Source: a virus
Taxonomy: Duplodnaviria > Caudoviricetes
Direction: 5' to 3' (one strand)
DNA: 29,026 nucleotides
Virus record (IMG/VR): IMGVR_UViG_3300032013_000005
Coordinates: 1 to 29,026 of that record
Made by a program: the position numbers and the translations under genes. Below are positions 5,035 to 28,837 of this stretch, one piece after another. Below the pieces are notes generated by a model that was not told where the DNA came from, did no database searches, and saw nothing but the letters and a program-made list of their open reading frames with translations. Positions within the stretch are counted from its first letter, which is position 1. Every line of letters starts with the position of its first letter.

Positions 5035-6927
5035 TTACCTCTGCTGTACAAAGCCTGACTGTGGCTGTGGAAGTTGATATGCTAAGCCTGGCATTGGGCT
5101 TTGTGCTTGCGCACCATTCTGTTGACCATTCGTAGAAGTCCCTGGTGCACCAGACGAACCTGACGCTGTTGGTGGTGCCGCACCATTGCCAGCGCCAGGA
5201 GCACCAGGCATAGGCTGTCCGCCTGGCACACCAGGTTGCTGTAGCGCCATTGGCGCTTGTTCCATCTGCACGAGGATATTACTCAAGCCACGCTCACCAA
5301 GCGTATGCCGCCAGATGTACTGAATCATCTCGGCGAGGTTCACCGCGTAGCCCTGTCCAGCAAGCTGTTGTTGGACCTGTGGATTTGCCAGCATATTCAG
5401 CATGATCAAACTGCGTTGTGCGCGTTGTGAGTCATCCTGGAATTGCTGCGCACCGATCCATTCAAACTCATAATCTCCGAGGATATCGGATCGCTTCAAG
5501 ATGTTACTTTGGACACCAGCACCATAGAAGGCCATACCTCCAGGTATCCGCATCAACTGCTCATCTGGGATGAAGCTGCTCACCTTATAGATGTCTGAGA
5601 GTGCTTGTGTGAGCACTTCCTGCTCAAGGATTTCTGCCACATCGGACACATCAGCCATACCGAGATTGACTAAGCTTTGCACGGCTGAGCCAGCTCTCGG
5701 CATGTTTCGTCCTGGTTGGCCTTCAGCAATGGTGCCTGCACCACCCATGCTTTGCATCAGCCCAGTCACGATCTGAAATGCTCTCAACTGATTGACAGAA
5801 GTTATGGGTGGTTGAATAAATTGCATCGCTTGCTTCGGATCATCATTGAACATCCACAAGGCTCTACCTTTAGCCTTCCAACTGTCATGGCGACGGTCGG
5901 CTTGTGCAGCAACAAAGCCTTGTTCCCAATCAACGCTACTCATGAACTGATTAAACAAGTCATTCTGAACATTGTCGAGTTCATTGATGTCTTCAGACTG
6001 TGCAGGAGTATACAGCTCACCAGGGAGTGGACGATGGACGGTCATACGGTAGAGTGGTTCATCATAGGAGCTTTTGAAGAAACCAACAATACGAGGTCCA
6101 CGCTTGAGATTCCAGGCGATGTAGACTTGGTATTGCACATCTTCTCGGCGTATCCACAGCTCAGTCAAGCTCACAAACGCTTCAGTCGTTGCTGCAAGCT
6201 CAGCATCAATGCGCCGTGAGCGTGTCTCGATATCTTGCGCAACATCAGCAGTGGGGTCTGTAATGCCCTGGTATGCCAAACGCTCTACCAGATGATACGG
6301 CCAATCTGGCTTCGTCAAGTCTGATATCTCAAGATCATCCACAAGGCCCTTACGCGCATAGGTCTTGTATTTCTCGTATGAGCACAGATGATCTTCAAAG
6401 ACTTTCTCTGCCTCTTCAACAACAGGGGAAGTTTCTGGGTAGATGTAAAACGAGAAGGGATCAATCGCACGCCATGAAGGCCACACGTTACCGTTCAACA
6501 CCTGGATGGAGGTCTTCAGCACGGAAAAGCTATACAGCATCAAGCAACGGACGAGCTGTGATACTATTGGTCGAGTTCTGATACGCTTACGGAGAACGTA
6601 ATTCATCCATTGATCGACGTTGCTGACTTTCTCAGGCGGAACATCGGCTGCTGGAGCCACTTCAAACCACCGCACAGACGGTGTGAGCATTTTCACGGCA
6701 CGAGTCGCAAAGCGTTCTTGAGTACGTCTCGCTGCTGGAATATCGTAGAGGTCTGCAACAGACTTACCTTCAGGAATCACTCTGGCCAGATGATTGCCAA
6801 ACCACTGACGGCGGGATGCTAACATACGCTGTTCAACGAGGAGCCGACGCTGACGAATCGCAATGATTTCATCGCAATACGCTCGGCTGTAGGCTTGCTT
6901 CAGTTCACTTTCTTGCTGAATCGGCAT
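5035..6927 (-). CDS. Portal protein (podovirus type)
   Basis: 630 aa, between TerL and scaffold. Portal-like motifs 'WRAIDPFSFYIYP' and 'HRPLPGELY', plus a disordered P/Q/G-rich C-terminal tail. Confidence 0.88.
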   Translation of the reverse strand: MPIQQESELKQAYSRAYCDEIIAIRQRRLLVEQRMLASRRQWFGNHLARVIPEGKSVADLYDIPAARRTQERFATRAVKMLTPSVRWFEVAPAADVPPEKVSNVDQWMNYVLRKRIRTRPIVSQLVRCLMLYSFSVLKTSIQVLNGNVWPSWRAIDPFSFYIYPETSPVVEEAEKVFEDHLCSYEKYKTYARKGLVDDLEISDLTKPDWPYHLVERLAYQGITDPTADVAQDIETRSRRIDAELAATTEAFVSLTELWIRREDVQYQVYIAWNLKRGPRIVGFFKSSYDEPLYRMTVHRPLPGELYTPAQSEDINELDNVQNDLFNQFMSSVDWEQGFVAAQADRRHDSWKAKGRALWMFNDDPKQAMQFIQPPITSVNQLRAFQIVTGLMQSMGGAGTIAEGQPGRNMPRAGSAVQSLVNLGMADVSDVAEILEQEVLTQALSDIYKVSSFIPDEQLMRIPGGMAFYGAGVQSNILKRSDILGDYEFEWIGAQQFQDDSQRAQRSLIMLNMLANPQVQQQLAGQGYAVNLAEMIQYIWRHTLGERGLSNILVQMEQAPMALQQPGVPGGQPMPGAPGAGNGAAPPTASGSSGAPGTSTNGQQNGAQAQSPMPGLAYQLPQPQSGFVQQR

Positions 6928-6944: not shown

Positions 6945-7011
6945 ATTATAGATAAAATCTATACGACATGTTATCACAGTGATAATATCTATAAGCTCAG
7001 TCAAAAGTCAA
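6945..7011 (-). promoter_or_regulatory. AT-rich promoter/operator region upstream of the portal gene
   Basis: TTGACT(7011-7006)-N18-TATTAT(6987-6982) and a TATAAT at 6950-6945. Palindromes TATAGAT-AAA-ATCTATA (6947-6963) and TTATCAC-A-GTGATAA (6971-6985). Confidence 0.55.
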
Positions 7012-7054: not shown

Positions 7055-7175
7055 AAGTACTTGACAATCGCTCCACATCCCGTGCCTTCGGCGAGCCGTC
7101 CGCTGAGCCATAGGAATGGCGCAGCGGACGCTCACCAAATGCTACGGGATGTCTCGCTATGATTGTCAAGTACTT
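7055..7175 (-). promoter_or_regulatory. Long fold-back element E1 (ssoA/Frpo-like single-strand promoter or primer origin)
   Basis: Perfect 15-bp terminal IR AAGTACTTGACAATC, with further stems ACATCCCG, CGTCCGCTG and GCCAT. Carries TTGACA-N19-TAGCAT on the minus strand and is homologous to 11175-11308. Confidence 0.7.
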
Positions 7176-7182
7176 CTTCCCA

Positions 7183-7278
7183 CTACAGCGCATCAGAACA
7201 CTTCTGGCTACAAATCGGCTCAACACCTTTAGGTGCGATAAATTCACGACCACACACAATACAAATATACTGAATCAC
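7183..7278 (-). CDS. 31-aa zinc-ribbon microprotein (not in the ORF track)
   Basis: GGAG RBS plus GTG start; MIQYICIVCGREFIAPKGVEPICSQKCSDAL*, with CxxC...CxxxC. Confidence 0.6.
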   Translation of the reverse strand: MIQYICIVCGREFIAPKGVEPICSQKCSDAL

Positions 7279-7283
7279 AGTGG

Positions 7284-7517
7284 TTACTCCACATCGAGCA
7301 TATGGAGCACTGCACCACCCCAACCACGGGTGAGCCCATAAGGACCACGAAATATCTCTCTCCGAATATCAGCAAGAGCGCCATGCAGGGTTTCGAGTGT
7401 CTCTGAGTCAGTATAGCCAAGTTGTACGAGGAGTGCTGGAAGCTTTTCATAATCAGTTGTTGCAAACATACTATCTGGGCCGTCTTCATCGTAGTCATAG
7501 AGGAGGTAGATGCGCAT
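7284..7517 (-). CDS. Hypothetical protein, 77 aa
   Basis: GGAG RBS; starts 2 nt after the TerL stop. Confidence 0.75.
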   Translation of the reverse strand: MRIYLLYDYDEDGPDSMFATTDYEKLPALLVQLGYTDSETLETLHGALADIRREIFRGPYGLTRGWGGAVLHMLDVE

Positions 7518-7519
7518 AG

Positions 7520-9133
7520 TTACTCCATTGCAAGGCGTACTAACTCATCATCTGGGAGTTCCATCCACCCATAGGGCTTTTGTTGCTGTTGAAACACCAA
7601 CGCTGCATGCTGCTCTTTGGCCTGCTGTAAGCGCAGCATCTTCGCATCTTCATACGGCACACCCCACTTGATATAGTTCTCAGCGGTGTAGCGCCAACTG
7701 CACGCAATATCGGCAAAGTACATGTCTTCAGTAGGCTTTTTGACTTGACTCTTTTCAGGATAGTGATAACCGCCTTCTAATGCACCAATGAGAATAGGGC
7801 ACTTCTCACTGATTAAGATCATCTCCATGCCGCACTGACATGCTGCTTTCGGCTTGAGCAGTCCTCGCATGTATTGCAGTGATGGCTCTAACTCTAAGAA
7901 ACGCCACTTGAAGGGGAGATGGTATTCATGCATGAGAATCTTCATATCACTGCGACCATCACGACTGGAGGAGCTGTTGCGCCATCCGGCTCTATCACCA
8001 CAATTGAGGACAAGCTTTGCCTCTTTGTAGAGCGCATCCATATGGGGTTTGTGGTGGAGCTTGTACAAATCGTGTACGGTTAAGTTGAAGGCTTCGCCGA
8101 CTTCAGATAAGGTGAGCAGATGATTACTGTTGAACTTGCACTTGTAGATATGGTGATAGGTAATGCCTGGATGTCTGAAGCCGAAGTCCCAACCGCATAT
8201 CAGCGGGAGGAGTGGATTAAACTTGAGGCTTGCCACATGCTTGCGATGTTCAAACTGCGGGAACACTGGTATGCCCTTGTATGCAGCAATAGACTCGCCA
8301 AACACCACACGACGAATGGTTCCATCGCTCCTATTCATCTGTCGTTGTGCACCAATGAGTGACTTGGCGTAGCCACCACCAGTAAATGGGTTGTCGAGTG
8401 TTTCACCCTTCAAAAACTCGACGGTATCTTGCCCAATCGTGCGGAGTCCAGGTGTACTGCCGAAGAGCTTATGGAGAAAGTGACCGTATGGTGGCGGATT
8501 CGATGAGAGCATACCGTGTAATGCGCCATGTGGTCGTGTTGTCTCGTCATATGTACGCGGATCAAACCGTACATGTGGTAAGCGTAGACGAGAGAGTAAG
8601 CCAGCCGTAACATTCGTGCCGACAAAGAATTCCTCCACGCACTCCAACGCATCATCCACCCAGAAGAAACCATGATCAGCACCTAAGCCTTGTCTCCAGT
8701 TCTTTCCGTGTATAGCATGTAGCTCTGAGCCGTTACTGAAGATGATTTCGGTGAAGTTGCCCTTTTCTTTCACGGCGTAAGCAGGTGGTGAGATGAGTTC
8801 ACGCTCTATCAGCCGTTGAATGCATTCCATCACTTTCCGCCAGCTTGTATCGAACAGCTCACCAAAGTTATGCCGAACCACCACACCACGGTTCTTCGGA
8901 ATGCTTAAGCTGAGATAGACACATTTCGCAGCAAAGCCTTCTGACTTGCCTCCACCAACACCGCCCTGCATGAAGAGATACATCGCTGTCGAGTTGAAGA
9001 TGTTGTGCTGTTGCGGCAAGATGTGTTGATGTGGTTGCTGTTTCTGCACACCGAAGAACTTCTCGCACTGGTCCTTGGGAAGCATGCAATCAGGTAAGAA
9101 GTTGTGCAGTGCTGGTACAGGATAGCTACGCAT
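7520..9133 (-). CDS. terL: Terminase large subunit
   Basis: Q motif 'LPQQ', Walker A 'GGVGGGKS', Walker B 'FFWVDD', coupling motif 'SSNP', 'TLDNPF', and RNase H-like nuclease motif 'GWDFGFRHP'. Confidence 0.95.
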   Translation of the reverse strand: MRSYPVPALHNFLPDCMLPKDQCEKFFGVQKQQPHQHILPQQHNIFNSTAMYLFMQGGVGGGKSEGFAAKCVYLSLSIPKNRGVVVRHNFGELFDTSWRKVMECIQRLIERELISPPAYAVKEKGNFTEIIFSNGSELHAIHGKNWRQGLGADHGFFWVDDALECVEEFFVGTNVTAGLLSRLRLPHVRFDPRTYDETTRPHGALHGMLSSNPPPYGHFLHKLFGSTPGLRTIGQDTVEFLKGETLDNPFTGGGYAKSLIGAQRQMNRSDGTIRRVVFGESIAAYKGIPVFPQFEHRKHVASLKFNPLLPLICGWDFGFRHPGITYHHIYKCKFNSNHLLTLSEVGEAFNLTVHDLYKLHHKPHMDALYKEAKLVLNCGDRAGWRNSSSSRDGRSDMKILMHEYHLPFKWRFLELEPSLQYMRGLLKPKAACQCGMEMILISEKCPILIGALEGGYHYPEKSQVKKPTEDMYFADIACSWRYTAENYIKWGVPYEDAKMLRLQQAKEQHAALVFQQQQKPYGWMELPDDELVRLAME

Positions 9134-9419
9134 CAGTGCTCCTTATGCTCAGGTGCAGCAGCCTCTCAACGAGTGCAGTCATTCTCCGCCGGATATCGGC
9201 GTTCGGGTTCGCTGCAAGCTCATGGTAATAGCGTGGTGGATGCCATGGACTAAAGGCACCTGTGACAATCAGTTCACTACAGTGACATATGTGACAATCG
9301 TATTCAGCGTTGTCCGCATCATAGTGATGGAGGAGTGCCCGATGCTGACAATACAAGCAGACTGGTGATGCTTCTAACGCATGCAGCTCTTCAGGTTGTA
9401 GTGTGGTGATGACCCACAT
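9126..9419 (-). CDS. Hypothetical Cys/His zinc-binding protein, 97 aa
   Basis: CxxC-H...H...CxxCxC pattern; overlaps the TerL start. Confidence 0.65.
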   Translation of the reverse strand: MWVITTLQPEELHALEASPVCLYCQHRALLHHYDADNAEYDCHICHCSELIVTGAFSPWHPPRYYHELAANPNADIRRRMTALVERLLHLSIRSTDA

Positions 9420-9422
9420 CGC

Positions 9423-9581
9423 TTAGAATCTCCCCATAAGCAACCATACCAGCAGCGCAACAAGCAGGATAGCAATGATGCTTGATGGTGCATAGCCGTA
9501 CTGATGAAAGCCCCAGTTGCCTGAGACTTGTGGAAGACCGAAGATGAGCAGGATGATCAACACGATGAGAATAAGCGTCAT
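9423..9581 (-). CDS. Small two-TM membrane protein, DUF3309-like (not in the ORF track)
   Basis: MTLILIVLIILLIFGLPQVSGNWGFHQYGYAPSSIIAILLVALLVWLLMGRF*. The LP...GY-x-PS...LLMGR pattern matches DUF3309. TGATG coupling with the upstream ORF. Confidence 0.8.
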   Translation of the reverse strand: MTLILIVLIILLIFGLPQVSGNWGFHQYGYAPSSIIAILLVALLVWLLMGRF

Positions 9582-9877
9582 CAATAATCCCTCACCGTGG
9601 TGAATTTCCCAGCGGCACTATCCACCCGTTGCAGTCGCGTAATCTTAAAGTATCGATTCATGAACTGGGCTGGATCACGCACGCTTTTCATCACCAGGAC
9701 ATACCGCCCATCTTCCACATCGAAATCAGGATGATCGAGATGGATTTCTGTGGTACTTGCGTCCACATTGCGTGTCATCGTGACCACACCCTGATCTGTG
9801 AAATCAACAATCTTTTGTTGCATCTCTGGTGCTGCTGCTTCCAGGATACTCCTCGCTACCACTAAGACGCCTCGCAT
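9581..9877 (-). CDS. Hypothetical protein, 98 aa
   Basis: Strong AGGAG RBS. Confidence 0.75.
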   Translation of the reverse strand: MRGVLVVARSILEAAAPEMQQKIVDFTDQGVVTMTRNVDASTTEIHLDHPDFDVEDGRYVLVMKSVRDPAQFMNRYFKITRLQRVDSAAGKFTTVRDY

Positions 9878-9974
9878 GATTTTCTCCTCTTGTCTTTCAG
9901 CGCAATGATTGATAGAATGAGTACTCCAGACATGCGTGACTCACTCCAGTGTTCCGTGTGCTGTGGTGCAGCCG

Positions 9975-10011
9975 GTCTCTGCGTTGGGCATGATCTCCCC
10001 CACGCAGAGAC
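9975..10011. other. Intergenic stem-loop
   Basis: GTCTCTGCGT (9975-9984) pairs with ACGCAGAGAC (10002-10011), plus an inner GGG/CCC. No U-tract follows. Confidence 0.6.
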
Positions 10012-10019
10012 TTGCAGCA

Positions 10020-10355
10020 TCACCGACTGAACTTCTCGGTCGTTTCCATAATCCTACTCAGCAGATTTGCTCGCCAGTTCTCAACGCGATGCACTCGCTT
10101 CGCTTTGCCTATGCCAATGATACTGCCATCAGACTGACGCTTCACGACCGCTAAGCGGATCGCATCAGCACCAACTGTTCGTACTTGTTCACCAACGAGA
10201 CTTGTATACACTCGTAAGCATATGCCGTGCTTGATGATCTTCCCATACACCAGTTCTCGCGATTGCGCCGTGATCGCATTGATGCGTGTGAAGCCAATAG
10301 CGGTAAGAAAGTTGTGCATATCTTCGGTCTTAATAGGCTTGAACTTCGCCGCCAT
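10020..10355 (-). CDS. Hypothetical basic phage protein, ~111 aa
   Basis: Start moved to MAAKFKPIK (AAGGAG RBS). Contains the motif 'LRVYTSL...R-x-VG-x-DAIR...RVHRVENWRANL'. Confidence 0.75.
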   Translation of the reverse strand: MAAKFKPIKTEDMHNFLTAIGFTRINAITAQSRELVYGKIIKHGICLRVYTSLVGEQVRTVGADAIRLAVVKRQSDGSIIGIGKAKRVHRVENWRANLLSRIMETTEKFSR

Positions 10356-10366
10356 GGCTGATCTCC

Positions 10367-10804
10367 TTATACTGTAGTAGGTGCTGTTACTGCGTCCCAC
10401 TCAGACCGTGCACTGATGAGATGGTCACTATCACCAGCAAAGACAAGATATGGATTAAGGAGAAGCACTTGCTTCTTCAACTTGCGTATGAGATCCGCAT
10501 AGTATAAATGCGCCATGGCGTCGTAGATAGCTGTCACACCAACATCGAATCTTGCAGCAAGATATTTCGCATTATATGCGACAACATTCCCATACGGATA
10601 GCTCAAGTCTGATGCGAAGCAATAGAAGAGACAATAGGACAAACGAGGTGCCTGCTTATGCCGTAACCGCCGATCTACCACATCATAGCTGTGCTTGTAA
10701 TGAATGACGTAACACTCTGGTCTCGATTGTCGATGTTTGAGCACCATAATGCTATCTCGCGGTAGGCTGTATGGTTTGTATGCTTGCAATGGATCAGGTT
10801 TCAT
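10367..10804 (-). CDS. Winged-HTH protein resembling plasmid/phage RepL-type replication proteins
   Basis: HTH 'AKYLAARFDVGVTAIYDAMAHLYYADLI' followed by the wing 'LLLNPYLVFAG' (NP-x4-5-G motif). GAGG RBS. Confidence 0.6.
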   Translation of the reverse strand: MKPDPLQAYKPYSLPRDSIMVLKHRQSRPECYVIHYKHSYDVVDRRLRHKQAPRLSYCLFYCFASDLSYPYGNVVAYNAKYLAARFDVGVTAIYDAMAHLYYADLIRKLKKQVLLLNPYLVFAGDSDHLISARSEWDAVTAPTTV

Positions 10805-10864
10805 GGTATACTCTGTTCCTCTGTATGGGGTGATGCCTGTGCAGTGACGGTCTCCACTCCGGTC

Positions 10865-11040
10865 TGACGATGCTCACCTGGTAGGACGCGACAGCCTACC
10901 AGGTCGTCACCTTCTCAAGTATACCACACTAGCCTATGAAAATCCACCCATAGCGGTATTTCAGCCCTCTTTTGCGGCTCTTTTTCCACCTATAGCCACT
11001 CTTTTTTGAGCTAAGCCTCTGAATCATAACGAGTTATGGC
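10865..11040 (-). promoter_or_regulatory. Promoter, leader hairpin and iteron-like repeats upstream of the RepL-like gene
   Basis: Extended -10 TGgTATACT (10926-10918); hairpin ACCTGGTAGG/CCTACCAGGT (10876-10904); TCCACC(C/TA)..TAGC-like repeats near 10943 and 10985 with T-tracts; IHF-like motif at 11012-11040. Confidence 0.5.
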
Positions 11041-11174
11041 ATTGCCCTTCTAAGATATAACCTGCTCCAGTGATGTGAGTAGCCTGGCGGTGCCTGCTCC
11101 GCAGCCTACGGCTGCTACGCTCGGATTTTTTCTGCACCTATGCATAGATAGTGCACACTGCTCACTTGTGCCGT

Positions 11175-11308
11175 TGAGCCAGGGTTGACATGCTAGGACA
11201 CGGCACGCTAGCATTTGGCGACAACGCCGTCGCGAGTCAGCACCTGACTCTCGACGGCGGACTCGCCGAAGGCAGCGTGCTGGGGCCGCATGTCAATGCT
11301 GGCGCTCA
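11175..11308 (+). promoter_or_regulatory. Long fold-back element E2 (ssoA/Frpo-like), homologue of E1
   Basis: Stems TTGACATGC (11185-11193)/GCATGTCAA (11288-11296), GCACGCT/AGCGTGC, CGCCGTCG/CGACGGCG and GAGTCAG/CTGACTC. Carries TTGACA-N18-TAGCAT. Confidence 0.7.
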
Positions 11309-11413
11309 GCAGTCAAATCAGCTTGCTCACCTGCGCGTAGCGCCCAGAGTGGCTCAGTGCTCATTTGTGCAGGTGCACAGAAGTGTCTCTTGACTCCATG
11401 TGCGGAGCACCTT

Positions 11414-11824
11414 ATGCTGAACCCCATGCGCACTTACCATGCACATCGGACTCGATTACAACAGTTCATCCAATCATCATTTACTCCGGTGATCCTGGTA
11501 AAGCTGCTCAACTGTCGAGTACGACCACTGCGTTGTGGAAGCGTGTGTGGTAATGCGCTAAAGTATGCAGTTCATAGCTTGCTGACTGATGAGCAGAAAT
11601 GCGCGTTTACGCGCAAGATCACTCGACATGTGCTGAGGATATGCTTCCCTGATGACTTTGTATCATTGCTGTTGATTGCAGCGTTTGAGCCATCTGGGAA
11701 ACCAAGTGAACAGAACCGAGCCTTGTATTACTGGTTACTCCACAACATCTATAGTGATAGCATAACCAGTATGATCGCTGACTGGCTTTTAGCAAAGAGG
11801 TGCGAAGCACTTGGACCCAAGTAA
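11414..11824 (+). CDS. Hypothetical protein, ~136 aa
   Basis: GGAG upstream of ATG 11414; first ORF of the rightward operon; start uncertain. Confidence 0.55.
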   Translation: MLNPMRTYHAHRTRLQQFIQSSFTPVILVKLLNCRVRPLRCGSVCGNALKYAVHSLLTDEQKCAFTRKITRHVLRICFPDDFVSLLLIAAFEPSGKPSEQNRALYYWLLHNIYSDSITSMIADWLLAKRCEALGPK

Positions 11825-12065
11825 GATCGTCTACTGCTGTACCAGATGCCAGCAGCTTCCCTGCCGATGCATTCGTGATAGTAGTCGCGTCACCTTTCAG
11901 ATTCTTCAGTGCAGTGCACCACACTGCAACTACACCACCTATACGGCTACAGACCTCCAGAATCATCATCTCGCTGCGCATGAGCGCTCGTACATCTTCA
12001 TTGCGGATCAATCTGTCGTGGAACATACCAATGGAGGTGCGAAGCACGATGGAACACATGTTTAG
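11811..12065 (+). CDS. C2H2 zinc-finger protein, 84 aa
   Basis: GAGG RBS plus TTG start. C-x4-C-x12-H-x4-H (CSAPHCNYTTYTATDLQNHHLAAH) and an N-terminal CCxxC-x4-CxC. Confidence 0.65.
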   Translation: MDPSKIVYCCTRCQQLPCRCIRDSSRVTFQILQCSAPHCNYTTYTATDLQNHHLAAHERSYIFIADQSVVEHTNGGAKHDGTHV

Positions 12066-12447
12066 ATCAGCTATTGCTGACGATCCTGATGCTATTCCAC
12101 TTGACGTACCGAATCAAGATTCTGGCGAAGCCGATGCAGCAAGTGTTGATATGGTCTTAGTGTTGTCGAGTGAACTGGTCTGCCAGATAGCCGAGAAGTA
12201 CTTCAACAGCACTATGCTGAAGAAGAAAGTGAAAGTGCTCGATCTCCAAGCAACCGCAGCAGGCTTAGTGCAGTTTAGTGTTGCTTTTACTCTTGATCCA
12301 GTAGGCGTCACTCCAACACGACTTGAGCTTATTCCTTCAAGCATTCCTCCTGCGGCTTCAGCCGCTCAGCAGCCACGAACAGCAAATGGCAAGTTCAGGA
12401 AGTCTTCAACAGCGGCTTTAGCCGCAAAGGTGAAAGATCATGAGTGA
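12049..12447 (+). CDS. Hypothetical protein, ~132 aa
   Basis: Start moved to ATG 12049 (GGAGG RBS); the ORF-track extension overlaps the C2H2 gene. Confidence 0.7.
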   Translation: MEHMFRSAIADDPDAIPLDVPNQDSGEADAASVDMVLVLSSELVCQIAEKYFNSTMLKKKVKVLDLQATAAGLVQFSVAFTLDPVGVTPTRLELIPSSIPPAASAAQQPRTANGKFRKSSTAALAAKVKDHE

Positions 12448-12874
12448 AACTCCGCGAAGTGGTAGTGGTAGTGGTGATACTGCGCGTAGCGCTGGTGATG
12501 AGATCACCACGAGTGAAGGTCCACGGAGAACAGCACCACGGACCAGTAGCACAGGTGTTGGTGGCGAAGTGACACAGAGCGAACGTGATGTTGCTGAGCA
12601 TGAACGCCAACGGACACAGCTACGTCAGAGTGGCGAAGCCAGTACAACAACATCAGAGACACCAGCCGTAGCGTCTGCACAGCAGGAACTCTTCAAAGCT
12701 GACTTCACGTCAATGCGTGAGCACATTAACGCATTGCGCAATCATGCCATGACTCTGCCCAACTCTGATGCACTCGCTGAGGTGCTGTTAGCGGTTGAAA
12801 GTGCCGAACTAGGCATTAGCCGTGCAGAGCGTTTAGTGCTCAATCTCCCTGATGAGAGCGCGGAGCGCCCATAA
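12440..12874 (+). CDS. Hypothetical protein with disordered N-half and helical C-half, 144 aa
   Basis: AAGGTG RBS; overlaps the previous stop; S/T/G/E-rich N-terminus. Confidence 0.75.
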   Translation: MSETPRSGSGSGDTARSAGDEITTSEGPRRTAPRTSSTGVGGEVTQSERDVAEHERQRTQLRQSGEASTTTSETPAVASAQQELFKADFTSMREHINALRNHAMTLPNSDALAEVLLAVESAELGISRAERLVLNLPDESAERP

Positions 12875-12883
12875 GGATACGCT

Positions 12884-15481
12884 GTGCGAAAACATGAGAG
12901 ACGTGTGAAGCGCAGCCTTCCCTTTGCTGTTGTGAGCATGTTTATCCTCGCTATCGTACTGATTGCTGGGTTGAATGTGCTTATGTCGGTAACGCGCTAT
13001 ACGCCTGATCCATCTGAAGAGAAGCGTGAAGCGCAGGTCGATTTGAGTGCGCGAAGCGCCAGTGCGCAATCACAGCAGACCATTCAGCGCATCATGAATG
13101 ATGTGTGGGATAAGACCGGTAAGCGCATCATGACGACACCATGGGCTGGTGCGCAAGGCACAAGCCAAAGCGAAACGTTCATCTGGAATGATGTGTGGGA
13201 TCAAGCGAATCATCTCATCAGAACATCTGGCGGAGCTGGTCCGAGTGGTCCGAGTGGTCCAGTCAACTTTACTGACCTTATCGGTACAGCCAGTGATGCA
13301 CAGATTCCCAACTTGAACACGCTCAGTACTGGTCTTACCCCATCTCGATGCGTGCAGACTGATGCAGTTGGTCATCTGAGCGTAGCTTCTGATGCGTGTG
13401 GCACTGGTGGTGGAGGTGGTGGAGATAGCACACCTGAGAACGTGGTCAGTGCACAAATTGTGTGCGATGGCACGACTGATGTTGGGCCAGCGCTGCAAGC
13501 CCTCTTTGATAGTGTTCCTGTTGGGACACGCATTGCACTCCCTCCTGGTATTTGTTCGCTGAATCAAGCGCTGGTTATTAATCAGTCCGTAAGCCTGGAA
13601 GGCGCTGGTATGAATCAGACGACCTTACGGCAAACGGTCTCCAATGCTCGCGTACTCACTGTCCAGACGTATAGTGTCACTATAGAAGGACTAACCTTCA
13701 GCCATAGTGGTACACCCACTGCTGGTGGTGATGGTCTTGTGGTCCTTGGTCCAGGTGGTGTTCCGATCTTTGCTGTGACGATCATGAATACCATGGCAAC
13801 GCATAATTGGCGAGGATACGCCATAGGCCCTGTATCCTATGCACAGATGGCGCATGTCTGGGCTATGAATAATGATAGCCATGGGTTTGAATTCCTCTAC
13901 ACAGCGGCTGATGGTGGTGGTTCGCAGCAGTGGCATGTGCTCAATGCGCTCTCGCAACAGAACCTTGGTGCTGGCTATTATGGCAACAACACGCTTGCTG
14001 CGAATGGTATTGGTCCCTGGCTTACAGAATCAATCAGCTTTGCCAATAATGCTGGTGGCTTTGTCTTCGTCGGCTCATCCGGGCATATGATTAGTGCCGT
14101 TCGCTTGAATGCTATTGATGCGAGTACGGATAATGTGCATGGTGTCTATCTCGACACCTTTGGTGGTTCACACCAGCTTGTCATGCCCAGTGTTGAGAAT
14201 GTCGGGCTGAATGCTGGCATTCCTATAGGCTCTGCAGGAACGCTCTCTGTGGCGAGCAATACTGGTCATGGTATTGAGGTCACGGCTAACAACAACTACG
14301 GTGTCATGATCAATGGTGGGACCATCTGGAATAATAGCTGGAGTGGTATTGTTCTGAACGCACCATCCAGTCAGCTTATTGGTGGTCAGACAGTCGGCAA
14401 TGGCAAAGCACTTATTGCTGACCCGACAAAGCGTGCAGCTCTCTATATTGGTGGAAACAACACGTTAGTTGATGGTCATACCTTCCAGTTCATTGGCGAT
14501 GGCTCGACACAAGATTACATCACGCTTGCTGGTGGTGTGACCGGCACGGTTATCGGTGTCAATAGCTATGCCGCAGGTCTCGCAGCAGAAACGAGCACTC
14601 TTGCAGGTTTACCTGCTGGCTCAACCGATTTCGTTGGCACTGGTGGACCTGGCCAGGTGTTGAAGCAGCTCAGTGTTGGTGGTCCGGTCACAGTAGGCCC
14701 ACTCAGCTCTGGTGAGGTTGGTTTAGGCAATGTAGACAATACCTCAGACACCACGAAGAATAGCAATCCAGCGGTCCTCACCAACAAGCAGATTGTTGCA
14801 CGAATTCCAACGTGTACTGTGACTGGATCAGGTCCATTCATCATCACGCCTAATGCCGATACAACTGATGTCTGCGAATCGTATGCGATTACTGGAGCAC
14901 TCCAGATAGCCAACCCTACAGCAACAGGTTCCAACCCACGTCCACATCAACGGCTTGAATTCGCCCTGAAGGCGGCTACGCCACAAACAGTGACGTTTAC
15001 AGGTTCCCTCTATGACAACAGTTGTGGTCAACCACTGCCGACAAACTTAACAGGTGATGGCTCCACAACCGATCACTTCCTCTTCGCCTTCAACCCCAAC
15101 ACCAATAAGTTTTGTGCACTGGCAAGTTCACGAGCACCAGCAAAACGGCTCAACACCTTCACGAGTGCGGTTGCCAGCCCCACACTCACCTGTGTCAGTC
15201 CAACAACAGACCGCTGTCAACTCACCGCTACTGGCGCAACCGGAACGATAACCATAGCGAATCCAACGGGATTGCCAAATGATGGTGATATGATGATGAT
15301 TGCACTGCTGTGCAGCGCCGTGCATGCTGTAGCGTGGGATACGCAGTTTGTTGGCAGTCCCAATATTCCCTTACCAACCACAGCAGCGTGCCCAGCAGAT
15401 ACCGCAAAGTGGACCGTGTTTGGTGTGCAGTACAGTGCAAGTTTGGCTCCGCCAAAGTGGCAATTGTTAGGAGCGAATTAG
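12884..15481 (+). CDS. Membrane-anchored tail-fibre/tailspike-like protein with a pectin-lyase-like beta-helix, 865 aa
   Basis: Basic N-terminus plus TM helix (aa ~12-36); beta-helix cap 'DGTTDVGPALQALFD...IALPPG'; fibre motif 'VGLGNVDNTSD'; two tandem C-terminal domains ('TTD..IANPT..LPT..F.(F/Y)..K(F/W)') typical of phage fibre ends; 12 Cys. Confidence 0.8.
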   Translation: MRKHERRVKRSLPFAVVSMFILAIVLIAGLNVLMSVTRYTPDPSEEKREAQVDLSARSASAQSQQTIQRIMNDVWDKTGKRIMTTPWAGAQGTSQSETFIWNDVWDQANHLIRTSGGAGPSGPSGPVNFTDLIGTASDAQIPNLNTLSTGLTPSRCVQTDAVGHLSVASDACGTGGGGGGDSTPENVVSAQIVCDGTTDVGPALQALFDSVPVGTRIALPPGICSLNQALVINQSVSLEGAGMNQTTLRQTVSNARVLTVQTYSVTIEGLTFSHSGTPTAGGDGLVVLGPGGVPIFAVTIMNTMATHNWRGYAIGPVSYAQMAHVWAMNNDSHGFEFLYTAADGGGSQQWHVLNALSQQNLGAGYYGNNTLAANGIGPWLTESISFANNAGGFVFVGSSGHMISAVRLNAIDASTDNVHGVYLDTFGGSHQLVMPSVENVGLNAGIPIGSAGTLSVASNTGHGIEVTANNNYGVMINGGTIWNNSWSGIVLNAPSSQLIGGQTVGNGKALIADPTKRAALYIGGNNTLVDGHTFQFIGDGSTQDYITLAGGVTGTVIGVNSYAAGLAAETSTLAGLPAGSTDFVGTGGPGQVLKQLSVGGPVTVGPLSSGEVGLGNVDNTSDTTKNSNPAVLTNKQIVARIPTCTVTGSGPFIITPNADTTDVCESYAITGALQIANPTATGSNPRPHQRLEFALKAATPQTVTFTGSLYDNSCGQPLPTNLTGDGSTTDHFLFAFNPNTNKFCALASSRAPAKRLNTFTSAVASPTLTCVSPTTDRCQLTATGATGTITIANPTGLPNDGDMMMIALLCSAVHAVAWDTQFVGSPNIPLPTTAACPADTAKWTVFGVQYSASLAPPKWQLLGAN

Positions 15482-23229: not shown

Positions 23230-24696
23230 TCAGCAATACATCAGTCCATCCTTCGCCCTGGTCACCGCCACATACAAAACATTCTTCTCCTGCTCCCTCT
23301 GCCAATGCGTCCGTGTTCGTTGCATCGCCTGCCCATGCAAGTGATGATCCAACATGTAGCACTGCTGTGCTTCAAGTCCCTTCGCCTTATGAACCGTTGA
23401 CAGCACCACGCCTCTACCCTGAGCGAACAGCTCGCTAATCTGCTCAGTAAGTACACTTGGGTGATCATCAAGTGTCACTTGCTGTGCCAGTGCAAGCAGC
23501 GAGTCTCGCTTGTCAATGATACGTTCTCGTTGTGTATCATCTTCAGCAACCAGAGCCTTACTCAACTCTAGCTCACTCCACTCTGCCAGGCATCCGAGCA
23601 GTTCGCGTATGCTGCTCACCGGAAATTTCTGCACCAGCTTCGTCAACCCTTCGCCAATACTGCGACCTCGCACATGACACGCTATGCCAGCCTTCAGCAG
23701 TGCATACGCATACCTGATCAGCGGCGCATTGTTCCTGCACAGCACCATACCCATAGATGGCGCCGTAATGCCCCTCAGTTCGCCCAGGATCGCCTCTGAG
23801 TCAGGCTCGCCATACCGTACCAGTCCATCGCCTGCATGGTCCCACGCCTCAATACACGGCCACACAGCCCTCGCCTCATCTACGATAGCTTTCCCACATC
23901 GATAGCTGATGCTCAGCGGTAACTCGACGCATTGAAATTGCTCAGTCAGATAATCCATCGAGTCGAGCATAGCGCCTCTGAAGCCATAAATGCTCTGATG
24001 ACGATCACCGACAAGAGCATACTTCTTTCCCTGGAGTTGAGCAATCAGTCTCGCCTGCATGCTATTGAAATCTTGCACCTCATCACACAAGATATGGTCA
24101 TACTGCGGCATGGAACACTGATATAGTGCTGGTAGACGTATCATATCGCTAAAGTCTATCGTACCAACACGCTCATCATTCTCTTCAAGGACGGTACTGA
24201 TATCCTCCTGCATACCCTCATAGTCTTCTAAGTCATATGTATTGACCATCTCCCGGTACGTCTGATCATCACACACCGTATCCTCACAACTGAACTTTGC
24301 CACGTCTACCGCTCTCTTCACCATCCACTCCAGGTCTGAGAGCTTGGTTTTCGGGGGAAGAACGAGCGTCTTCAAGCGTGGTGTCACGTATTGCCGTACC
24401 AGCTTGATCACCTTCTTCTCGTCAATCTCTGGTCTTCCATAGGTTGCACTGATAGCCCGTAGCCCTAAGCTGTGTGTGGTAAGCACTGCTGAGTCAGCTT
24501 TCGGTGGGAGTTTCTGCTGTGCCTCAACTTGGTTTTGCTTATTGAACACGACATACACTGTTGACTTCGTGTCCAAGCCCCACAAGTGCGCTATGTTCGT
24601 AGTCTTTCCTGCCCCTGGACATGCTTGCACCACAATATTGCTCGCACTGCTCCCCCACATATCGAATATCGCTTCAGAATAATGCGACCATTGCAT
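23230..24696 (-). CDS. UvrD/Rep-family SF1 DNA helicase, 488 aa
   Basis: Motifs 'ACPGAGKT', 'DEVQD', 'VGDRHQSIYGFRGA', 'LSISYRC', 'STVHKAKGLE' and 'YVAVTRAK'. Confidence 0.96.
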   Translation of the reverse strand: MQWSHYSEAIFDMWGSSASNIVVQACPGAGKTTNIAHLWGLDTKSTVYVVFNKQNQVEAQQKLPPKADSAVLTTHSLGLRAISATYGRPEIDEKKVIKLVRQYVTPRLKTLVLPPKTKLSDLEWMVKRAVDVAKFSCEDTVCDDQTYREMVNTYDLEDYEGMQEDISTVLEENDERVGTIDFSDMIRLPALYQCSMPQYDHILCDEVQDFNSMQARLIAQLQGKKYALVGDRHQSIYGFRGAMLDSMDYLTEQFQCVELPLSISYRCGKAIVDEARAVWPCIEAWDHAGDGLVRYGEPDSEAILGELRGITAPSMGMVLCRNNAPLIRYAYALLKAGIACHVRGRSIGEGLTKLVQKFPVSSIRELLGCLAEWSELELSKALVAEDDTQRERIIDKRDSLLALAQQVTLDDHPSVLTEQISELFAQGRGVVLSTVHKAKGLEAQQCYMLDHHLHGQAMQRTRTHWQREQEKNVLYVAVTRAKDGLMYC

Positions 24697-24977: not shown

Positions 24978-25703
24978 CTAGAATCTATCAAGAAAGGGAT
25001 CGCTGTCTGCTTGACTCTCCGTGTGCTTCGCAAACCATAGCCCATGCTCATCTTTATCCAGCATAATCGCTTTATTCTGGATGACCTCACTATCGCCTAA
25101 TATGCGTCCTTTCTCAATATTTAACCGTGTTTTGAGCAGACGCCACTCTTGCGAACAGTTACCACCAAGACTATGGTGACCCGCAGCCCGGTTCGCATCA
25201 TGCGGTGGATGATGGATAAGCATCCAAGGTGTTACACCCACCAATGCCTTAATGATATTGACTGGCATCAGAATAGCCTCTGTATTAATAGGCCAAGCAG
25301 TCAAATTGTACAGTGAGTCAAACACCAGAAAACCGGGCTGTAGCTCTGCAATGTACCTCTGAAGCCGTGCACAATACTCGGGATTACCAAGTGCTCTTTC
25401 CGCCACATCCACCACAGTAAAGCCTGCACTCTTTGGTGCAATCCGTTTGAGCATTTGACGCCACTCCACAGCTAAGCTGTCCGCTTGCACATACATAATA
25501 TTCTTCTGCTTCACTCGCCTTCCCAAGAAATCAGTCCCATCTTGCAATGCGGTACACATTTGCATGGCGAACGTGGTTTTCCCTATCCCTCGCAGCCCAT
25601 AGAAGAGTGTCCAACCAACACTAGGCAACAACCCTTCAATAAGCCACTCGAAGTCGTCTGGCTCCTCAACGAATTTATTAATACGAATCGCTCGCAACAG
25701 CAT
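24978..25703 (-). CDS. RecA-fold AAA_25 / RepA-like (SF4-related) ATPase-helicase, ~241 aa
   Basis: 'EWLIEGLLP', Walker A 'GLRGIGKT', Walker B 'LVFDSL' and 'LIHH'; start moved to ATG 25703 (AGGAGG). Confidence 0.85.
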   Translation of the reverse strand: MLLRAIRINKFVEEPDDFEWLIEGLLPSVGWTLFYGLRGIGKTTFAMQMCTALQDGTDFLGRRVKQKNIMYVQADSLAVEWRQMLKRIAPKSAGFTVVDVAERALGNPEYCARLQRYIAELQPGFLVFDSLYNLTAWPINTEAILMPVNIIKALVGVTPWMLIHHPPHDANRAAGHHSLGGNCSQEWRLLKTRLNIEKGRILGDSEVIQNKAIMLDKDEHGLWFAKHTESQADSDPFLDRF

Positions 25704-25965
25704 GCTCCTCCTTGAACTGTTCCACCCATGCAATGCGCACTTGACCAGAGCGGTAGCATAGCTTGTATGTGCCGTCAATCACATGCGCAGCAAGTCTACA
25801 ATCAAAGCACACTTTGCACGCATAGAATAGGCTATGATACCGTGCACTATGGTAATACCCAACGCCCACAATGCAATTATCAGCAATCAGCTTGGTACGA
25901 CAACTAGGGCACGTCTTGCGATCCCTCAAGCTAACCTGAGCAACCCAGATATTCATCGCTCGCAT
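25678..25965 (-). CDS. Zinc-finger protein (CxxC...CxxC), ~95 aa
   Basis: CPSC ... CKVC; GGGGAG RBS. Confidence 0.7.
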   Translation of the reverse strand: MRAMNIWVAQVSLRDRKTCPSCRTKLIADNCIVGVGYYHSARYHSLFYACKVCFDCRLAAHVIDGTYKLCYRSGQVRIAWVEQFKEEHAVASDSY

Positions 25966-28808: not shown

Positions 28809-28837
28809 AAGATAGCGCATGCTCACCAATGTGTCAA
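28809..28837 (-). promoter_or_regulatory. Sigma70-type early promoter
   Basis: TTGACA(28837-28832)-N17-TATCTT(28814-28809), pointing into the early gene block. Confidence 0.7.

Follow-up and report, generated by a model that had tools for sequence, protein, structure and literature searches.

The 29,026-nt window analyzed here, a part of the genome of a tailed phage (IMG/VR record IMGVR_UViG_3300032013_000005; Duplodnaviria, Caudoviricetes), carries two long imperfect fold-back elements, E1 and E2, in its intergenic regions. A longer contig of this phage (G006), which extends past window position 1, contains a third copy, E3, and a variant of E1 is present in a close strain (L054), which is 93–98% identical to the window across most of its length. 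Judged by their sequences, the three elements are homologous; their fold-backs covary and follow the plan of a sigma70 promoter. Their conserved geometry, together with refolding of one arm into a hairpin with a GNA triloop, favors a putative DNA-level site for the host RNA polymerase (RNAP). We see roughly an even chance that the three elements serve as single-strand origins, at which the host RNAP would make a short primer on an exposed strand.

E1 (7055..7175) folds best on the minus strand, with a TTGACA −35 hexamer at 7169–7164, a TAGCAT −10-like hexamer at 7144–7139, and the −35 partner TGTCAA at 7066–7061. E2 (11178..11303) folds best on the plus strand, with the corresponding hexamers at 11185–11190, 11209–11214, and 11291–11296. 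Both form unbranched rods and are the two lowest-energy regions of the window in a 120-nt sliding scan (z-scores of −11.9 and −11.4 for RNA and −11.5 and −10.4 for DNA, respectively; none of 200 shuffles folds as well). The folding strand is more stable than its complement by 5–13 kcal/mol for RNA and 5–10 kcal/mol for DNA. A strong fold at 5120–5260 was considered as a further element and rejected as a GC-rich coding stretch. E3, which was recovered with a covariance model, lies on the minus strand approximately 7 kb beyond window position 1 (G006:C1:1586-1695, loci L452/L453), 14 kb from E1; it contains hexamers TTGACG and TAGAAT and starts 9 nt past the stop codon of a virion gene. E1 occupies the gap between the terminase and portal-like genes, and E2 the divergence point of two late operons, 380 bp from a gene for a RepL-like protein. 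The 4-kb interval between E1 and E2 includes the terminase gene, about six small open reading frames (ORFs), and the RepL-like gene.

Four copies, namely E1, E2, E3, and the L054 variant of E1, were compared. Bases are paired in 176 of 184 alignment cells, and 23 of 46 pairs have changed on both sides, a result matched by none of 500 shuffles and compared with 31–43% in slid controls, although these counts are not a probability, since the alignment was fitted to the model and the copies are related. The L054 variant differs from E1 in its inner stem by compensatory changes. The six pairs beside the −10 region are Watson–Crick in all 24 cells, one column showing four different pairs, and G-T pairs constitute only 4 of 160 pairs in the variable helices outside the fixed block. 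In E3, the top −35 hexamer has drifted to TTGACG, and its partner is still TGTCAA.

All four copies keep three parts invariant: the −35 duplex, positions −12 to +2 of both arms, and a 16-nt spacer on the template side (3′ arm). The top-strand spacers measure 19, 19, 18, and 18 bp, and the 16-nt template-arm spacer with a bulge is present in each copy. Neither A(−11) nor A(−8) is paired in any copy (probability of being unpaired 1.0), owing to a bulge in three of them and to a mismatch in E3. E1 and E2 have in common a C-T mismatch, which is C-C in E3. The fixed template block spans the region melted in an open complex; it is CTCGCCGAAGGCA at 7095–7083 in E1 (predicted +1 at 7094), where it includes a GCC-GAA-GGC mini-hairpin, and is located at 11262–11274 in E2 (predicted +1 at 11263). 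With the −10 strand kept open, the arm on the template side refolds as GCC-GAA-GGC in all four copies, at a cost of 10–14 kcal/mol. The predicted RNA would start with AG, and the distance from +1 to the loop is 18, 16, 20, or 19 nt; the loops are TCCT, CAC, CAC, and one of 13 nt. The copies also have in common a TCARCA motif 9–11 nt 3′ of the fold. As a separate observation, an early-type promoter, TTGACA-17-TATCTT, at window position 28837 (minus strand) holds in its spacer TTGGTGAGC, as in the block after the −10 of E1.

Sigma70 prefers a spacer of approximately 17 bp, and melting begins with the flipping of A(−11). The element is therefore mediocre as a duplex promoter and well shaped as a fold-back. 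The scarcity of G-T pairs and the conservation of a hexamer recognized in B-form would further favor DNA over RNA as the functional molecule. The preliminary description of this DNA, made from the window alone, had depicted E1 and E2 as promoter mimics on opposite strands whose stems differ and still pair, with a paired −35, a mismatched −10 block, a spacer internal loop, and a C-T mismatch in common. The sequences that it gave match the window letter for letter, and these features are all present. The covariance-model search that it proposed recovered E3, with members apparently confined to this phage and L054. A putative sigma70-type site rebuilt by DNA fold-back, most plausibly a host-RNAP priming site, is supported.

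The elements were compared with known systems in which a fold-back is read by a polymerase. Filamentous phages also rely on host-RNAP priming on a fold-back; at the M13/f1 minus-strand origin and the mitochondrial OriL, the hairpin used by an RNA polymerase for priming does not form until the strand is displaced. Unlike the E copies, these sites serve a single-stranded phage or an organelle, with one site per genome. The primers of ssoA and M13 are similar in size to the predicted 16–20 nt. In plasmids and conjugative elements, host-RNAP priming on fold-backs has been described for the single-strand origins (sso) of rolling-circle plasmids (PMC8860593) and for Frpo (PMC11541004).

The closest likeness is to the ssoA of pMV158/pLS1, pT181, and pSN2, in which one strand forms a long imperfect fold-back. 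In sso, the RNAP site is at the loop-distal stem and the primer ends at the loop (PMC8860593); in the E copies, −35/−10-like boxes also appear to occupy the loop-distal stem, and a short RNA is predicted to run to the loop. The position of ssoA relative to the rep gene is flexible (PMC5703833, PMC8860593), and in the pSN2 family ssoA is accompanied by a small RepL (PMC5703833); a RepL-like gene is present here. The E copies differ from ssoA in their length (110–125 vs. approximately 160 nt), in their near-consensus −35 and −10, and in being present three times, with both strands represented, in the 44-kb genome of a tailed phage.

Frpo and the ssi sites of F and ColIb-P9 are similar in that −35 and −10 are rebuilt by folding and read by host RNAP, with priming possible (PMC11541004, PMC9849209). 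However, Frpo is a rod of approximately 330 nt whose folding strand is the template of the genes under its control; for E1 and E3, it is the coding strand that folds. This comparison of polarity rests on the folding strand, as the −35/−10 boxes in F Frpo were not placed by the scan. Only E2 could serve an operon, that of RepL, in Frpo fashion. The predicted RNA runs toward the 5′ side of the folded strand, which for E1 and E3 makes it antisense to the gene upstream; therefore, ssoA-like priming is a better fit than gene expression of the Frpo type. The F leading region showed no homology (best blastn E-value of 0.2), and covariance model R2 reached no more than 18 bits in 14 kb of F sequence compared with 107–131 bits for members. 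No relaxase or type IV secretion system families were found among the 40 window ORFs, which include terminase, capsid, and tail-type genes instead.

With RSF1010 ssiA/ssiB, the elements have in common a CCGAAGG mini-hairpin core, present in all four copies (PMC13037366), and the placement on opposite strands of sites that would prime toward each other. The RSF1010 sites differ: they are approximately 40 nt long, lie side by side, and serve the plasmid primase RepB′; the phage sites are kilobases apart and contain sigma70 hexamers. No match to a RepB′-like gene was obtained in the sequence covered, with approximately 6.5 kb of the genome outside it. The RepA protein of RSF1010 belongs to the AAA_25 family, and the phage also encodes an AAA_25 ATPase. 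The E copies would work like ssoA but are not members of Frpo, RSF1010 ssi, or 6S RNA. The ssoA/Frpo likeness proposed by the preliminary description extends to the fold-back and box layout of ssoA; a CS-6 hexamer, Frpo homology, and the template-strand folding of Frpo are missing. Its picture of an RSF1010-like pair facing each other across a RepL-like gene and iterons has to be revised, since there are three copies, at least 4 kb apart, and L054 lacks E2; the RepL-like gene does lie between E1 and E2, together with the terminase gene and the small ORFs, and the “iterons” are three CTCTTTT repeats. In the open-access literature, which leaves subscription papers mostly outside the search, no tailed double-stranded DNA phage with such a site was found.

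The element is so far restricted to one phage and one close strain. Covariance model R1 run on 65 sources detected only this phage and L054. Pattern scans of viral sequences returned three matches, all from the same phage; six loci, three from the same phage and three without the fold; 98 loci, of which only the three own copies have the element fold; and eight loci, four own and four by chance. A further viral scan, for which 120 of an estimated 210 matches (83 distinct spans) were listed, contained only E1 among the matches listed. No element was present among 120 of an estimated 340 stretches from a scan of a genome collection, and blastn of E2 against plasmids and E1 against phages gave no match over more than 80% of the query. 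A sequence-free scan for any −35-closed fold-back yielded 2 hits among 356 candidate spans (116 loci), both of them E1, and long-hairpin scans of relatives revealed nothing comparable. One long hairpin found elsewhere (L053:6020-6150), closed by GTCAAGGG/CCCTTGAC and with CTTCG and CTACG loops, was rejected as unrelated to E1–E3.

The GNA mini-hairpin of the template block has many relatives in this genome. A total of 41 GC-G[AGT]A-GC motifs were observed in 37.7 kb against 17.5 expected, and 22 of these 41 have stems of at least 4 bp, compared with 17 of 199 hairpins with other loops. The enrichment is limited to this lineage (window, G006, and L054), where the 4–6 bp stems covary; each of 10 relative genomes has 0–1 hairpins with such stems, and other family loci have 10 in a total of 853 kb. 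No fixed flanking motif was found around them. Their distribution between strands is polar: to the left of E2, 19 of 24 lie on the minus strand and 5 on the plus strand, the last minus-strand ones, at 11096..11120, preceding the switch; in the zone 11335..13386, all 11 GCG[AGT]AGC motifs are on the plus strand; and beyond 14.9 kb all six are on the minus strand, four of them inside plus-strand genes and one between such genes. The strand therefore flips at approximately 11.2 kb, at E2, and again between 13.4 and 15 kb, and each E copy folds on the strand locally favored by the mini-hairpins. At the position of the missing E2, L054 has a GGGC-GAA-GCCC hairpin on the strand of E2. In DNA, GNA triloops are highly stable, and RSF1010 ssiA includes CCGAAGG (PMC13037366).

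The candidate initiator of replication is the 145-aa helix-turn-helix protein encoded at 10367..10804 (minus strand). The preliminary description had named it RepL-like, and this is borne out by a search of the ESM Atlas (0.97, TM 0.64); its match to Pfam PF05732 is below the family cut-off (E-value of 0.057). No tblastn match for this gene was found in G001–G005, and weak matches were obtained in two distant relatives (L041 and L044), both without the element. Three CTCTTTT repeats at 10967..11005 (plus strand), with spacing of 11 and 21 (22 and 22 in L054), are weak iteron candidates. In rolling-circle plasmids, RepL initiators of approximately 18 kDa, RNAP-primed ssoA, PolA, and PcrA/UvrD co-occur, and in the staphylococcal pSN2 plasmids a RepL of approximately 18 kDa works with RNAP-primed ssoA (PMC5703833). 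The phage encodes a UvrD/Rep-type helicase (23230..24696, minus strand) and an AAA_25 ATPase (24978..25778, minus strand), both identified by family matches; for the latter, a single-sequence structure prediction reached a pLDDT of only 35. A PDB search yielded no useful match. Four complete relatives (L455, L458, L461, and L464) encode a split family A polymerase, in which small ORFs separate the UDG-exonuclease gene from the polymerase gene. Complete relatives also have UvrD (G002–G004), AAA_25, and a Sak4-like protein (family match in G002 only). No primase family was matched in the window or in 134 ORFs of the non-structural regions of three complete relatives, and no polymerase of the phage itself was recognized in the sequence covered.

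In the proposed mechanism, phage replication would expose a strand, the element would fold, and the host RNAP would start on it an RNA that begins with AG, runs 16–20 nt to the loop, and is presumably extended by a DNA polymerase. E2 may prime leftward synthesis beside the RepL-like gene; the minus strand displaced by this synthesis would then allow E1 and E3 to fold and prime rightward synthesis. The order of these events, from E2 to E1 and E3, is the least certain step. Only tentatively do we propose a wider scenario, in which the phage acquired a plasmid-style layer (the RepL-like initiator, three fold-back sigma70 origins, a mini-hairpin switch pre-opening the bubble, and genome-wide strand-polar GNA hairpins) that would allow primase-free strand displacement primed by host RNAP, similar to that of mitochondrial DNA. 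If true, host-RNAP priming on fold-backs in a tailed phage would be an additional replication mode for double-stranded DNA phages. Whatever their role, the four natural variants isolate, within approximately 110 nt, design rules of a single-strand sigma70 promoter: a paired −35, a 16-nt template spacer plus bulge, an unpaired A(−11), an AG start, and 16–20 nt to the loop.

Several observations weigh against a role in priming. At the position of E2, L054 has a different sequence. With model R2 (41 records), the element was found in none of eight complete relatives and in none of the other 40 viral records; since relatives G001–G004, which have the same helicase and ATPase genes and likewise gave no primase match, lack it, the element is not needed for replication in this family. 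Its absence from relatives with similar replication genes and that of E2 from L054 show that the element is an accessory layer. In all three copies, the strand that folds is the coding one of a late operon, in agreement with the local transcription direction noted by the preliminary description, so orientation cannot separate DNA from RNA roles. None of the four loops contains a CS-6-like hexamer, taken as TAGCGT. Of 30 mini-hairpins with stems of at least 3 bp, 7 were placed by eye between a start codon and a Shine–Dalgarno-like site, so that they may act in mRNA. The skew of G/C at fourfold sites is mixed: exposure of the minus strand fits it to the right of 14 kb and misfits it in the operon of E1 and E3. 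Finally, the suggestion of a primase-independent mode agrees with the lack of primase families, but the approximately 6.5 kb of the 44.2-kb genome outside the covered sequence may encode a primase.

Both late operons have plain sigma70-type promoters of their own, TTGACT-18-TATTAT for the portal-capsid operon (6982..7011, minus strand, 50 bp past E1; TTGACA-18-TATTAT in L054) and TTGACT-17-TATGCT for the rightward operon (11390..11418, plus strand, 94 bp past E2), the latter kept in L054 despite the lack of E2. A plain promoter is also present in the terminase-portal gap of relatives (five of five genomes). Contigs from RNA libraries end at 6958, 6961, and 6962 (three of four runs) on the portal side and begin at 11416, 11445, 11528, and 11576 on the other, which hints weakly at the plain promoters as the start sites of late mRNAs. 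None of 25 RNA-contig pieces covers the core of E1 or E2, although contigs cannot show absence and a structured RNA of 110 nt would probably be missed. Just downstream of the portal promoter, the palindrome ATAGAT-N3-ATCTAT (6948–6962), adjoined by TATCAC-N-GTGATA, is a candidate operator, as is the adjoining palindrome; ATAGAT-N3-ATCTAT occurs once each in three of five relatives (G001 5747, G002 15678, and G004 42854).

A regulatory role of the same DNA fold, as a replication- or supercoil-gated promoter or an RNAP trap, is the main rival explanation but appears unlikely, despite the fact that the whole anatomy fits it equally well. E2 would then transcribe the RepL-terminase operon, in keeping with its location at the divergence of two operons, and E1 and E3 would give antisense RNA or hold RNAP, possibly upon cruciform extrusion. 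Frpo-type sites both transcribe and prime, and one is a replication roadblock (10.64898/2026.01.09.698686). Full extrusion is roughly estimated to require 84–107 kcal/mol, close to the relief of 80–84 kcal/mol at a superhelical density (sigma) of −0.06, but this estimate omits the junction cost and kinetics. Two of three copies would yield RNA antisense to the gene upstream of them, and the operons already own plain promoters.

The same plain promoters, found downstream of the elements in each operon, weaken the proposal of the preliminary description that these are self-regulating late promoters. An ordinary duplex promoter, silenced by the promoter-complementary 3′ tail of its own transcript, is the least probable of the explanations considered: E2 scores 10 of 12 with an 18-bp spacer, E3 reads TTGACG-18-TAGAAT, and the terminase-portal gap of relatives does contain a promoter, but the 19-bp spacer of E1 is poor, the portal-side RNA contigs end near the plain promoter, and the kept mismatches and fixed 16-nt arm would be unexplained. 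A role at the RNA level, either as a 6S-like decoy of sigma70-RNAP or as an intergenic stem for processing or stability of late mRNA, is quite unlikely. It would account for the coding-strand location of every copy, for the start of E3 and the L054 E1 copy 9–12 nt past a stop codon, and for variable C/T positions that face a fixed G, compatible with G-U wobble; RNA-library contigs of two runs also enter or span E3, possibly from library DNA. Nevertheless, G-U pairs are few, RNA tetraloops are missing, and a fixed TTGACA duplex with a fixed spacer makes little sense in A-form RNA. The 6S layout, with its upstream side toward the loop, is the reverse of that of the E copies, and the 6S-like decoy considered by the preliminary description found no backing in Rfam, where E1 and E2 have no matches at E-values up to 1. 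Very unlikely, too, is a small, selfish mobile palindrome whose symmetry would be maintained by template switching and which would have no role for the phage. It would explain the patchy presence, the three intergenic sites, and the common TCARCA, and arm-to-arm copying can mimic covariation; however, such copying should erase the mismatches at −11, −8, and the spacer, all of which are kept in four of four copies. Moreover, no transposase family is present among the 40 window ORFs, and the viral, genome, plasmid, and phage searches found no copies elsewhere, two of the scans within the matches listed.

The remaining observations concern the phage and its relatives. Its sequence is present in soil sequencing runs, and a 44,247-bp contig (L056) encodes the same portal protein. 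Family matches in the window also include a major capsid protein and tail-type proteins with a beta-helix. The portal-like gene (5035..6927, minus strand), downstream of E1, was named from its position, without a family match; the 134 listed homologs of its product led to 43 viral and 59 metagenome loci, and of 24 candidate prophage relatives in genome contigs none was confirmed. The terminase large subunit gene (7520..9133, minus strand), upstream of E1, matches PHROG 979 and 3717 with E-values of approximately 1e-4; in G005, the terminase gene is not adjacent to the portal gene and lies approximately 15 kb away. The gap between the terminase gene and E1 includes a 330-bp stretch with small ORFs (7191–7521) that is missing in L054. 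Two smaller intergenic inverted repeats are located at 10874–10900 and 9963–10023, the former being conserved in position and different in sequence in L054. Distant AT-rich relatives (L482–L493; G030, G032, G033, and G039) contain many perfect palindromes of 14–21 bp with short loops.

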